Of a DNA stretch of 10,038 bases, positions 596 through 9,462 are shown piece by piece (the stretch's first letter is position 1; every line of letters begins with the position of its first letter). The notes under the pieces are model-generated. The model was given only the letters and a program-made list of their open reading frames with translations, did no database searches and had not been told where the DNA came from. The translations under genes were made by a program, and so were the position numbers. Source of the stretch: Octopus sinensis. Taxonomy: Eukaryota. The DNA lies in the NCBI RefSeq assembly GCF_006345805.1, contig NW_021827636.1, forward strand, positions 1-10,038, read 5' to 3'.

Positions 596-596
<1 letters not shown>

Positions 597-657
<61 letters not shown>
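597..657. repeat. (ATT)n microsatellite
   Basis: Perfect trinucleotide run. Confidence 0.98.
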
Positions 658-660
<3 letters not shown>

Positions 661-1011
661 CGTTTATATATTGGTTGTGAAAGATTTTTTATGTGAAGTC
701 GTGTGTTGAAACAGATATTGTTATATTTTGGAATGGTCATTTTGCCAGTTTAGCCAATAAAAACACACGCACTATATATTTGGTGTTACTTTGCTTCAGT
801 GTTATTTATTTATTACATTAATCTTAATCTTATTTCAGCCAGAGTTCTTTCGTCACACTCCTGTGACCGCATCAGTGGTCCTTTGTTTTCTTCTTTCTTA
901 TTTGTGTGTCTCTCCTTACTAATATTTGTATCTTCTGTTTATATATGTTCGTGTAATTTGATTTTGTTTATTCTTTCTTTTCCTTTTTATTTTGTTCATG
1001 TTTACATCCAC
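658..1011 (-). mobile_element. Probable Penelope-like element terminal-repeat fragment or retrozyme-like insert
   Basis: Non-microsatellite island flanked on both sides by (TTA)n. It contains a minimal hammerhead fold (837-880) and a TATATAAA (938-945, minus strand) upstream of it. No RT or GIY-YIG coding sequence is visible. Confidence 0.5.
837..880 (-). ncRNA. Minimal type I hammerhead ribozyme-like motif (variant or degenerate core)
   Basis: Minus strand reads GA-CCA-CUGAUGCG-GUCACA-GGAG-UGUGAC-GAAA-GAAC-UC^UGG-CU. Stem I is CCA/UGG, stem II is 6 bp with a tetraloop, stem III is very short, and the cleavage triplet is CUC. The core is CUGAUGC rather than canonical CUGANGA. Confidence 0.62.
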
Positions 1012-1069
<58 letters not shown>

Positions 1070-1158
1070 CATTATTATTATTATTAAGTATGCTTGTATG
1101 TATGTATGTATGTATAACAACAATACTAGTAATAACAATAATAATAATAATAATAATA
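1012..1158. repeat. (TTA)n followed by (GTAT)n and imperfect (ATA)n
   Basis: Direct reading of the sequence. Confidence 0.93.
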
Positions 1159-1204
1159 AAACATTTTTTTTAATTTTAATTAAAAATTTTTTTTTAAATA
1201 AAAA

Positions 1205-3300: not shown

Positions 3301-3486
3301 TTCAAATTTCGGCACAAGAATAGTAGTTTTAAGGAGTGAGGAATAATCGAAAATATCGAGTCCAGTACTTGATTTGGTACTTTATTTTATCGATTCCGAA
3401 AGAATGAAAGGCAAAGTCGACCTCAACGGAATTTACCGCCGAACAGTTTGTTCGACGCGCTAATGATTCTACCAGTTCGCCGCCTT
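3300..3486 (-). mobile_element. tRNA-derived SINE family B, copy B1 (diverged, internal deletion)
   Basis: Minus strand AAGGCGGCGAACTGGTAGAATC...GTCGACTTTGCCTTTCATTCTTTCGGAATCGATAAAATAAAGTACC...CTTGTGCCGAAATTTGAA aligns with 4096-4309. Confidence 0.85.
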
Positions 3487-3501
3487 ACTAATGTCCAAAA
3501 T

Positions 3502-3732
3502 AATTCTTTATACTACAGGCACAAAGTCTAAAGTTTGGGAGCTATGCGGATTGTGGGCGGGGTGAGGGTGTAGTCGATTACACCCACTGTATTACTCGGC
3601 TGGTGCCTTTGGTTTTATATCGAAAGATAAAAGGCAAAGCAAAACCCAAATCGGTGGATTTTGAACTAAGAACGTGAAGAATCAGAAGAAATTTCAACTA
3701 AACATTTTGTCAAACGTACAAACGATTCTGCA
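3502..3732 (-). mobile_element. SINE B, copy B2 (highly diverged)
   Basis: Landmarks TAGTCGATTACA, AAAGGCAAAG, TTTGAACT-AGAACGT and AACGATTCTGC occur in family order. Confidence 0.75.
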
Positions 3733-3737
3733 ATAAA

Positions 3738-3804
<67 letters not shown>

Positions 3805-3805
<1 letters not shown>

Positions 3806-4019
3806 CCTTTCTATTATATATACAAGGCCTTAAGTTTTGGGTGATTCGACTAGTCGATTACATCGACCCCAGAATTTCACTGGTACTTAATCTATCGACC
3901 CGAAAGGATGAAAGGCAAAGTCGACCTCGGCGGAATTTGAACTCAGAACCTAAAGACAAGACGAAATACCGCTAAGCATTTCGCTCGACACACTAACGAT
4001 TCTGCCAGCTCGCCGCCTT
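3805..4019 (-). mobile_element. SINE B, copy B3 (full length)
   Basis: A box TGGCAGAATCG, B box GAGTTCAAATTCC, central GCCTTTCATCCTTTCGGGTCGATAG, and tail ...AATAGAAAGG(ATT)n. Flanked by AAT runs. Confidence 0.93.
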
Positions 4020-4047
4020 GATGATGATGATAATAATAATAATAATA

Positions 4048-4095
<48 letters not shown>

Positions 4096-4096
<1 letters not shown>

Positions 4097-4309
4097 GTTT
4101 CAAATTTTGCCACAAAGGTAACAATATTGGGGGAGGGTATGAGTCGATTACATCGACCCCAGTACGCAACTGGTACTTATTTTATCGACACTGAAAGGAT
4201 GAAAGACAAAGTCGACCTCGGCGGAATTTGATCTCAGAACGTAGCGGCAGAGGAAATACCGCCAAGCATTTTCCCCGGCGTGCTAACGATTCTGCCAGCA
4301 CGCCACCTT
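4096..4309 (-). mobile_element. SINE B, copy B4 (full length)
   Basis: Same head and body as B3 with an alternative tail ...TTTGTGGCAAAATTTGAAACC(ATT)n. Flanked by AAT runs. Confidence 0.93.
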
Positions 4310-4455
<146 letters not shown>

Positions 4456-4710: not shown

Positions 4711-4873
4711 GGCGCAGGAGTGGCTGTGTGGTAAGTAGCTTGCTAACCAACCACATGGTTCCGGGTTCAGTCCCACTGCGTGACACCTTAGGCAAGTGTC
4801 TTCTGCTATAGCCCCGGGCCGACCAATGCCTTGTGAGTGGATTTGGTAGACGGAAACTGAAAGAAGCCTATCG

Positions 4874-4914
<41 letters not shown>

Positions 4915-5138
4915 ATGTGTTTGTGTGTCTGTGTTTGTCCCCCTAGCATTGCTTGACAACCGATGCTGGTGTGTTTACGTCCCCGTCACCTAGCGGTTCG
5001 GCAAAATAGACCGATAGAATAAGTACTGGGCTTACAAAGAATAAGTCCCGGAGTCGATTTGCTCGACTAAAGGCGGTGCTCCAGCATGGCCGCAGTCAAA
5101 TGACTGAAACAAGTAAAAGAGTAAAAGAGTAAAAGAGT
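4711..5138 (+). mobile_element. SINE family A, full-length copy A2
   Basis: A box TGGCTGTGTGG (4721-4731), B box GGTTCAGTCC (4764-4773), CORE-like GACACCTTAGGCAAGTG, internal (TA)n(TG)n, 3' GGCGGTGCTCCAGCATGGCCGCAGT, and tail (GTAAAAGA)x3. Confidence 0.95.
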
Positions 5139-5167: not shown

Positions 5168-5364
5168 CTTTTATATTTTATTTTTTATTTCACTTATTAC
5201 ACTAGGGCCATGCTGTAGCACCGCCTAGGAGGGCTTTAACCATGCAAATCGGCCCTAGAGCACACATGTATATTTTAAAATCTGATAGTGATTTTATCGC
5301 TCATATTTGCCGAACCGCAAGGTTACAGGTACGTAAACAAACCGAGACTAATTGTCAAACAGTG

Positions 5365-5416
<52 letters not shown>

Positions 5417-5569
5417 CAACAGGATGGGCTTCTTTCAGTTTCCATCTACCAAGTCCACTCACAAGGTTTTGTCGTCCCGAGACTATATAGTAGAAGACTC
5501 TTGCCCAAGGTGCCACGCAGTGGGTCTGAAGCCGGAGTCAACTTCTTACCACACAGCCACGCCTGCGCC
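5168..5569 (-). mobile_element. SINE family A, diverged copy A3, tail-to-tail with A2
   Basis: GGCCATGCTGTAGCACCGCCT, TTTGCCGAACCGC, GCTTCTTTCAGTTTCC and CACACAGCCACGCCTGCGCC are reverse complements of A2 segments. Expanded (TA)n at 5368-5415; deletion in the tRNA region. Confidence 0.9.
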
Positions 5570-6158: not shown

Positions 6159-6723
6159 GAATAATGTTCAGCCTACTTAAGCAGTCCGAAGGCATAGTAG
6201 TAGCTTACAATTACTTTTTATAAAGTATACGAATTAGGATTCCGCTAAATCGGTTCGTCTAATTTGCATGACACTACATATCCTAACAATGTGAATTAAG
6301 TATTTGATTCATTATACTCTCCTTAGTGACCCATATATGAATACACACACACATACACACGCATGTATGTATGTGTGTGTGCGCGTGCGCATACAGACAT
6401 ACATACACAAACTTATTACACGCAGTATCTTAATTGCAACGGACTACTTTAAGTTTCATGCTAGATGGAAGGTATCCGACTACGTAATACGTTAGAAAGA
6501 AAATGAATGTACATGAAATAGTAGCATCTCTTGAATGTATTAAGTGCTGTATTTTTACTTAGTCTTTTAAGAAATGAATAATCACTACGTGTGGTGGTGG
6601 TGGGGCGGAGGGTTGTGTGCCCGTATTGGTGTCGTGTCTGCTTGGCCAATAGTTTGAACCGACAACTTGTAAGCCGACCCTGAAACAGCTTCCTTTTCTG
6701 TAATGTCAACCATTTAAAAATAT

Positions 6724-7139
6724 ATATTTCTTTACTGCCCACAAGGGGCTAAACATAGAGGGGACAAACAAGGACAGACAAAGGGATTAAGTCGATTACA
6801 TCGACTCCAGTGCGAAACTGGTACTTTATTTATCGACCCCGGAAGGATGAAAGGCAAAGTCAACCTCGGCGGAATTAGAACTCAGAACGTAGCTGTAGAC
6901 GAAATACCTATTTCTTTACTATCCACAAGGGGCTAAACACAGAGGAGACAAACAAGGACAGACAGACGGATTAAGTCGATCACTTCGACCCCAGTGCGTT
7001 ACTGGTACTTATTTAATTGACCCCGAAAGGATGAAAGGCAAAGTCGACCTCGGCGGAATTTGAACTCCTAACGTAGCGGCAGACGCAATACGGCTACGCA
7101 TTTCTCCCGGCGTGCTAACGTTTCTACCAGCTCGCCACC
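6724..7139 (-). mobile_element. Dimeric SINE B with 10-bp target-site duplication
   Basis: Full unit 7139-6909 followed by a headless unit 6908-6724. TTAAAAATAT occurs at both 6714-6723 and 7140-7149. Confidence 0.93.
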
Positions 7140-7516
7140 TTAAAAATATTTAAGATTTAATAAATATTTAAAACGAATATATACATACACATACTCACAC
7201 ACACATATTCATACATACATTCCGTTATATCCACCATAGTTTTTATCTGTCGATCGTGTTGTATACTTCCACAAAGTGGCTAATAGTTTCGTCTTACATC
7301 TACGACCCTAACCACTGACACAATTTCACTGAAGTGGAGCAGCACTTTAAAATTAGTAAAGCCTGATCATATTCACAATAACAGCGTCATAACCCTGCAT
7401 GCCCTTCTTTAGACGTAGTCAGGATGAGTATCCAGAAAGAAGACACTTGCTTTTGTTGGTTCATGTGACCCAATAATGGAAATATCTCAGTGGATAACGC
7501 ATTCGACTATTTAGTA

Positions 7517-8125
7517 GCTGGAAGCACGTTCAAATCTTACGTACAGGCATTTCGTTATCCTTGAATCTAGATTGCTCTTTTTTGCTGATAATCTTTTCTA
7601 CTAAAGGCATAAGGCCTGAAAGTTTAGGGGAGGAAACTAGTCGATTACATCGACACCAGTGTTTCACTGGTACTTAATTAATCGACCCCGAAAGGCTGAA
7701 AGGCAAAGTCGACCTCGGAGGTATTAGAACTCAGAACGTAGCTGTAGACGAAATACCTATTTCTTTACTACCCACAAGGGGCTAAACAAACAGATGACAA
7801 ACAAGGACAGACAAACGGATTAAGTCGATTATATCGACCCCAGTGCGTAACTGGTACTTAATTTATCGACCCCGAAAGGATGAAAGGCAAAGTCGACCTC
7901 GGCGGAATTTGAACTCAGAACATAACGGTAGACGAAATACCGCTAAGCATTTCGCCCGGCATGTTTTGCTGACAATAAGTTCAATTCCCATGCAGATATT
8001 TCATTACTCCTAGGTTTGGAACACTTTGATCTGCTGATAGTAAGTTCAAATCTTGTCAAGGCATTTCATTGTCTCTGAGTGTAAGCCATTCCATTCTAAT
8101 GATAGTATGGCTAAATCATGTGATT
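7517..8125. repeat. Diverged ~65-bp tandem repeat interrupted by a SINE B dimer
   Basis: Units of the form GCTGAyArTAAGTTCAAATC...GGCATTTCATT start at 7517, 7584/7968 (the split unit) and 8033, with a weak unit at 8098. Confidence 0.65.
7593..7963 (-). mobile_element. Dimeric SINE B, 5'-truncated, with 13-bp target-site duplication
   Basis: Units 7963-7758 and 7757-7593. TTTTGCTGATAAT (7580-7592) matches TTTTGCTGACAAT (7964-7976) with one mismatch. The A box is missing. Confidence 0.92.
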
Positions 8126-9261: not shown

Positions 9262-9424
9262 GGCGCAGGAGGGGTTGGGTGGTAAGAAGCTTGCTTGCCA
9301 ACCACATGGTTCCGGATTCAGTCCTACTACGTGGCATATTGGGCAAGTGTCTTCTACAATAGCCTCGAGTGCCTACCAAAGCCTTGTGAGTTGATTTGGT
9401 AGACGGAAACTGAAAGAAACCCGT

Positions 9425-9462
<38 letters not shown>

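Follow-up and report, generated by a model that had tools for sequence, protein, structure and literature searches.

In metazoan Penelope-like elements, minimal type I hammerhead ribozymes are described on the sense strand of the pseudo-long terminal repeats (pseudo-LTRs; Cervera and De la Pena 2014, PMC4209133). They combine a short helix I, a 6-bp helix II opening with G10.1-C11.1, a nucleotide added between position 9 and position 10.1 and a helix III stub that requires a dimer, and they occur mostly as truncated single copies, with some inverted pairs. Their cleavage is reported to be weak and to proceed only as dimers, and A9 is present in 56 of the 56 representative motifs of the 2014 alignment, U3-A8 variants included, no cephalopod being among them (PMC4209133). 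The placement, the helices, the added nucleotide and the form of the copies are shared by a motif on the minus strand of a 10,038-nt stretch of Octopus sinensis DNA (positions 1 to 10,038 of contig NW_021827636.1, assembly GCF_006345805.1; this whole stretch is called the window), which belongs to a Penelope-like element. However, the octopus motif has C at position 9, its additional nucleotide is G (consensus H in the published motifs, with G in 1 of 56), and loop III of its recent subfamilies is not self-complementary. The core variant of the published set is a compensated U3-A8 pair, whereas the octopus C9 comes without compensation.

Other described systems share only part of these features. 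Neptune and Nematis elements (Craig et al. 2021, PMC8557442) have the same order of reverse transcriptase (RT), CxxxxCxxC linker and GIY-YIG, together with partial tandems, inverted 5' copies, (TA)n insertion and a hammerhead near the 3' end; the octopus linker spacing resembles that of Nematis by eye. The Naiad and Chlamys clades likewise amplify without canonical hammerheads (PMC8557442), with an N-terminal endonuclease and no recognisable full motif, whereas the octopus motif is complete except at a single core position and its stepwise change can be dated. The natural core variants of Perreault et al. 2011 (PMC3088659), which include U3-A8, C6, insertions and U15.1-A16.1 and have low or no activity, are rare single cases, and the available part of that text names no position-9 change; the octopus C9, in contrast, is present in thousands of copies. 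Non-LTR retrozymes (PMC7229834; bioRxiv 10.64898/2026.07.22.740005) share the type I hammerhead and a tie to Penelope repeats. They are non-coding tandem repeats of ~300 nt, whereas the octopus motif lies in a coding unit of ~4.5 kb, and no tandem array is present at 837-880.

The literature searches retrieved no natural C9 family, A9C core or octopus Penelope hammerhead, the Lunse 2017 survey being outside them. Going by its title, Lunse et al. 2017 reportedly surveys Penelope-linked hammerhead variants. The extra G, which the first-pass annotation of the window had considered as possibly new, is not so, a nucleotide between 9 and 10.1 being already described (PMC4209133). Across a young, abundant and self-propagating lineage, the hammerhead-shaped motif of the octopus element departs from the core consensus at one position.

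C9 as a lineage trait

The type I topology proposed for the minus strand reads as described, and the minimal hammerhead-shaped motif is confirmed at the sequence level. A relaxed descriptor allowing any base at position 9 has one match in the window and none in 1000 dinucleotide shuffles of it, and the three-way junction with helices I and II and A15.1-U16.1 is present. The canonical core CUGANGA ... GAAA ... UH is found in older subfamilies but not in the window copy, in which position 9 is C. With 30 letters held fixed, position 9 and the extra nucleotide read CG in 2,045 and AG in 178 of 2,415 exact genomic matches, the other combinations seen being mostly CA or TG, as CpG decay would give; CUGAUGC therefore dominates CUGAUGA among the exact matches. 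A looser C9 pattern gives 2,928 matches (control 96), 97 of the first 100 coming from this family, and an equally spaced U7-A9 pattern covering all families gives fewer (2,506; control 239). As exact matching under-counts old A9 copies, no gain in activity or copy number is claimed for C9.

Older versions of the family differ in loop II and N7 and mostly carry A9. Loop GAAG has 276 matches, with A9 in 24 of 30 loci, loop GAUG has 355, with A9 in 27 of 30, and loop GGAUG has 258 when one mismatch is allowed. When copies were sorted on flank markers, in a sample A9-enriched by design, 145 of 174 were assigned to subfamilies and 29 were left unassigned. The subfamily with a median divergence of 3.8% comprises 14 A9 copies and one C9 copy, and that at 2.7% comprises 25 A9, one C9 and one T9. 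Two subfamilies have a median divergence of 1.8%, one of them mixed (8 A9, 9 C9) and the other with 5 A9 and 52 C9, whereas the youngest (0.9%) has a single A9 for 28 C9, with U17 in 23 copies. Hence A9 is found in 39 of the 42 copies of the two oldest subfamilies and C9 in 80 of the 86 of the two youngest. Exact matches with U17 number 678.

A tree was built from the final 480 nt of the open reading frame (ORF) in 58 copies and three outgroups, with the motif itself left out. Its root lies among A9 copies, and a clade (97/92) groups 39 C9/T9 rows with two A9 rows. C9 needs four changes on this tree, so reversion or template switching occurred. A second, older C9 lineage was rejected, since the 15 old C9/T9 rows scatter (14 changes, a number as low in 307 of 500 shuffles). 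C9 is therefore the lineage-wide state of the recent subfamilies, fixed in their source lineage: the first-pass annotation had offered decay of the window copy or a family-wide core, and the 2,045 exact C9 matches against 178 with A9, together with the C9 clade on the motif-free tree, discard the former and bear out the latter for the recent subfamilies. The series starts with A9 and a helix III that is self-complementary; the dimer helix then acquired two A-A mismatches, after which came C9 and finally U17.

The element carrying the motif

The motif lies on the sense strand within the 3' terminal repeat (pseudo-LTR) of an autonomous RT and GIY-YIG Penelope-like element, the layout of which matches the described architecture of such elements (PMC8557442; PMC2377424). 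RT and GIY-YIG reading frames occur in many of sixteen regions chosen for paired motifs. One of them, L095, is composed of an inverted piece, a 5'-truncated tandem copy, and a unit with ORF, 3' untranslated region (UTR), motif and (AT)n; the last 420 codons of its ORF hold YVDD, the CxxxxCxxC linker and GIY-YIG. The Pfam GIY-YIG match of L095 (E 0.0013) is below cut-off, and so, by the curated cut-offs, are those of its relatives, P0002 with RVT_1 (E 0.004) and P0004 with both domains. The nearest database protein, at 95% identity, comes from Octopus vulgaris and is annotated as hypothetical with an RT domain, and a CX2-5CxxC linker precedes GIY-YIG in 10 of the 12 proteins compared, as in Neptune and Nematis. 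The old GAUG subfamily sits behind the same kind of ORF. No ORF was unbroken in the 22 loci read, the breaks being mostly frameshifts for which decay or assembly error is possible.

Copies adjoin RT/GIY-YIG ORFs and some are in tandem: partial tandems with inverted 5' copies are seen in L095 and in 18 junction units. The distance from repeat to repeat is 4,575 nt (L301) and 4,554 nt (L303), both C9 units, which gives a full unit of ~4.5 kb, and full units carrying C9 in both repeats are present. The frame crossing the tandem junction into the ORF stays open for at least 100 aa in 6 of 14 junction units, and third-position changes between subfamilies at ORF codons 3, 4 and 6 are silent. In most of the 40 ORF-reaching copies, the motif shares the strand of the ORF and follows its end by 300-800 nt on the 3' side. 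Among 90 pattern-anchored copies, 82 continue beyond the cut site for 120-180 nt and stop at either of two 3' ends, followed by (TA)n in 57 of these 82 and by (ATT)n in 3. In ten loci of metagenome relatives, most of which stop near the ORF, no hammerhead was identifiable.

The window stretch is a dispersed repeat (1,243 candidates, 40 scored), which rules out a single-copy segment. Its assignment to a Penelope terminal repeat, suggested earlier for 658-1011, holds in view of the RT and GIY-YIG units, whereas the companion suggestion of a non-autonomous retroelement does not, the window copy being merely 5'-truncated in its 3' UTR at about 1164-1204. The boundaries given were also too short, as the element continues through a (TTA)n tract to at least 1164. 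Other copies match 658-922 at 93-96% and 920-1164 at 84% identity by BLASTN, and tblastn with the element proteins found no ORF body within the window.

Changes in the ORF, the helices and the dimer helix

Majority differences between 10 early and 14 young C9 copies over 376 codons amount to 49 silent changes at 229 sites and 26 replacement changes at 899 sites, i.e., a ratio of replacement to silent changes per site (pN/pS) of 0.13 (Fisher p 1e-18); within groups, pN/pS is 0.47-0.62. The ORF was thus under purifying selection after C9 fixation, and amplification continued.

From the old GAUG subfamily to the recent ones, helix I changed from G-C to A-U at 2.1-1.1 and from U-G to C-G at 2.3-1.3, and helix III from G-U to G-C. 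The changes in helix I keep pairing, but the whole-structure covariation score is reached by 36 of 500 shuffles and does not go beyond them. Helix II is alike in the majority of all sampled subfamilies, its columns being fixed by the search patterns. In the dimer, helix III of the old subfamily is fully self-complementary in 21 of 30 copies (six pairs including G-U, +0.2 kcal/mol), whereas the recent form retains four of the six pairs with two A-A mismatches (+2.4 kcal/mol). GAAC had been viewed as one change away from palindromic GUAC or GAUC; the older loop was indeed self-complementary, but as GAUU, through G-U pairs. U17, with which two molecules can form a 10-bp duplex over the cut site, falls within the NUH rule (PMC3884650) and is therefore not counted as decay.

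Folding and detection vary between copies. The minimum-energy fold of the window copy is another structure, no more stable than those of shuffles (z -0.5), and its helix II has a probability of 0.28, compared with 0.90 in an A9 copy and in a C9/U17 copy, both with the commoner C at 837, where the window copy has a private U. Rfam called no hammerhead at the window motif, nor in three loci with A9 copies, and a PDB sequence search gave no useful match.

Breakpoints around the predicted cut site

No sharp pile-up of 5' breakpoints is seen at the cut site, where 54 matches (about 14 of them likely duplicates on unplaced contigs) compare with 43, 51 and 35 at control offsets, the last two being inflated by 1-nt deletions. 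Among the 5' repeats of 18 full units, 11 span the cut site, 7 start downstream and none starts there. L259, the single A9-era full unit checked, also spans the cut site, and a full tandem is found at L296.

Probable consequence of C9 for cleavage

The reading favoured here, with a probability of roughly 55%, is that C9, once fixed in the source lineage, slows cleavage, and that the element multiplied on, likely because it does not need fast cleavage. The hammerhead motif would thus be weakened, its full strength being likely unneeded for multiplication across more than 2,000 copies. Speaking for this reading are the rise of C9 in ever younger subfamilies, the purifying selection kept on the ORF, full units with C9 in both repeats, the invariant A9 of the published motifs, the weakened dimer helix, the lack of a sharp breakpoint peak at the cut site and the amplification of Naiad and Chlamys elements that have no canonical hammerhead. 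G12 is the general base and pairs with A9 by three hydrogen bonds, one of them from the G12 amine to A9 N7 (PMC2553840), and changes in the core usually reduce hammerhead activity (PMC3088659; PMC9901934, the latter not singling out A9). A9 would hold G12 in a sheared pair via its N7, which C would not offer, and self-cleavage is likely at least ten times slower with C in place of A9. Cutting within the 3' repeat would deprive the RNA of the 120-180 nt leading to the element 3' ends used for integration; therefore, uncut RNA from tandem sources is proposed to serve as template, and such sources could yield more-than-unit templates without cleavage. Constraint on the entire pseudo-LTR, with its promoter, 5' leader and ORF start, would presumably account for the persistence of the helices.

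Several observations weigh against this reading. The literature searches, with the Nelson-Uhlenbeck review outside them, found no cleavage rate for an A9C mutant, and trapping by a C9-G12 Watson-Crick pair was rejected as a mechanism, being predicted at only 0.04-0.08, minor and unsupported. The motif shows no sign of free decay, with one change in 46 positions between early and young C9 copies (C17 to U); none of the 26 helix positions changed, for 5.6 expected at the silent rate, a rate possibly inflated by recombination. The neighbouring 3' UTR (16 changes in 307) and leader (3 in 95) are also slow, so this constraint cannot be assigned to the motif itself. U17 conforms to the NUH rule and is frequent among published Penelope motifs. 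With 1-nt deletion artefacts subtracted, breakpoints are slightly more frequent at the cut site and immediately 3' of it than 9-20 nt upstream, and since A9-era copies also lack a clear cut-site signal, breakpoints cannot separate A9 from C9. The insertions longer than one unit in C9 subfamilies could also have come from a circular template, for which cleavage would be required.

The main rival, though less likely, is that the C9 core still cleaves well enough for cleavage and circularisation to continue as in the A9 era. From base-pair geometry, C could be bulged out and the extra G take its place at position 9. Penelope hammerheads being slow anyway, such a register slip or a host factor could help. 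The unchanged helices and the 11 of 18 full units exceeding unit length are in line with continued cleavage, as are typical C9 copies, which fold helices I and II like A9 copies (0.90 each); activity is low in the minimal motifs already published and is partly retained by natural core variants (PMC4209133; PMC3088659; PMC3884650). However, A9 is invariant in the published representatives (PMC4209133) and is the majority state in every older subfamily sampled, and C9 came without compensating change (old A9 and early C9 copies differ at one of 45 positions), on a dimer helix already weakened beforehand and without arising as a second lineage. That CUGAUGC together with the extra G makes up a functional active site, and thereby the first family-wide replacement of A9 in a natural core that still cleaves, is rated as unlikely, one step below continued cleavage as such. 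If it did cleave, thousands of copies would have been missed by CUGANGA descriptors and Rfam, and animal hammerhead counts would be too low.

A clearly less probable alternative is that the motif was already non-catalytic in vivo before C9, when self-complementarity of helix III was lost, and was kept for another job, C9 being a neutral passenger. The job could be that of a pause site, of a hairpin bound by RT or of a structure in the promoter or leader, and the pseudo-LTR of Drosophila Penelope is described as holding a promoter (PMC2377424). The loss of two pairs from the dimer helix III in the A9 era, the A9-era unit L259 spanning the cut site and the likeness of helix II among subfamilies (with the search-pattern limit noted above) are compatible with it. 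Yet several A9 subfamilies kept a canonical core even as loop II and N7 varied, which is what a working ribozyme would show, and the helix I changes keep pairing. Finally, decay of the window copy alone after insertion has practically no chance of being correct, as the private changes of that copy, such as U at 837, and the scattered private C9/T9 changes of very old copies are outweighed by the exact-match counts and the ORF tree.

Why Penelope elements carry hammerheads is an open question, precursor processing and a passenger role being considered (PMC8557442). One genome offers here four natural versions that can be placed in time within one self-propagating lineage, namely A9 with a self-complementary helix III, A9 with a mismatched one, C9, and C9 with U17, i.e., a natural test of whether these hammerheads matter, of which either outcome bears on this question. 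If C9 is dead, an autonomous element with a strongly selected protein reached thousands of copies with no functional ribozyme; if C9 cuts, a broader hammerhead consensus is needed.

Features of the window copy

Table 1. Coordinates of the Penelope-like element copy and its hammerhead motif in the window.
Feature	Position	Strand	Basis or remark
5'-truncated Penelope-like element copy, part of 3' UTR and pseudo-LTR	661..1164, weak match to ~1204	minus	BLASTN, tblastn
First 27 codons of element ORF, ATG at 740, ~100 nt 3' of cut site	660..740	minus	Frame continues into ORF in tandem units
(TAT)n host microsatellite at element 3' end, likely insertion target	596..657		Sequence; 3'-end survey
Private deletion breakpoint, ~100 nt lost between TAA microhomologies	918..923 (920/921)		Other copies match as two pieces ~100 nt apart
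(TTA)n tract, part of the element's own 3' UTR, no flank	1012..1086		Tract and flanks shared by L029, L201, L227
Minimal type I hammerhead motif	836..881 (881-836)	minus	Sequence, descriptor match, alignment with older subfamilies
Helix I	5' strand 881-876, 3' strand 841-837	minus	Pairs A876-U841, C877-G840, C878-G839, G880-C838, G881-U837; A879 bulged
Core C3-G8, CUGAUG	875-870	minus	Sequence
C at hammerhead position 9, fixed in source lineage	869	minus	Exact-match counts, A9 in older subfamilies and outgroups, rooted ORF tree
Extra G, 3' of position 9	868	minus	Sequence
Helix II, 6 bp, loop GGAG, opens with G10.1-C11.1	867-862/857-852	minus	Sequence
GAAA	851-848	minus	Sequence
GAAC	847-844	minus	Sequence
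Helix III stub	848-843	minus	Sequence
U16.1, C17 and predicted cut	843, 842 and 842/841	minus	Sequence

Other observations on the element and neighbouring repeats

The spacer between RT3 and RT4 is 130-133 aa long in 12 proteins (P0002-P0018; L095:2700-3180), whereas it is ~60 aa in Drosophila Penelope, i.e., ~70 aa shorter. Insertions in fingers are described only for Naiad, Chlamys and some Coprina (PMC8557442, as far as its available part goes); the presence of such a similar stretch alongside a C-terminal endonuclease may be the mark of a subclade not yet named.

Splice-donor-like GTAAG words occur 20-45 nt 5' of the motif (window 895-925; L062, L374, L382) in old, middle and youngest subfamilies; no good splice acceptor was seen, and no splice-like joint is listed in sequencing-run contigs over L095:4200-5150. 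Contigs holding this part of the element come from four runs, labelled as four organisms, and the tandem junction into the ORF start is spanned by one contig in each of two presumed-RNA runs. At G000:C6:39301900-39307970 (L257), a tandem array with units of ~395-490 nt derives from the 5' ORF start of the element.

Other abundant A9 hammerhead-like families, some with palindromic helix III loops, are represented by L118, L120, L124, L125, L132, L137, L139 and L140. Two unrelated abundant repeats (L344, L350, L352, L353, L360 and similar) match CUGAAGCG...CGAAA by pattern alone, helices aside.

Within the window, copies of one SINE-like (short interspersed nuclear element-like) repeat lie at 270-586, 4720-5126, 5169-5530 and 9273-9443, one of them ending at the microsatellite that hosts the Penelope copy. 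A second interspersed repeat is found at 3375-4310, 6718-7140 and 7640-7950, one copy being a 184-bp tandem. At 1756-2284, and on to ~2420, a 263-bp tandem duplication (two copies, 95%) is placed between (TAT)n tracts and followed by unique sequence; it may be the end of another mobile element.
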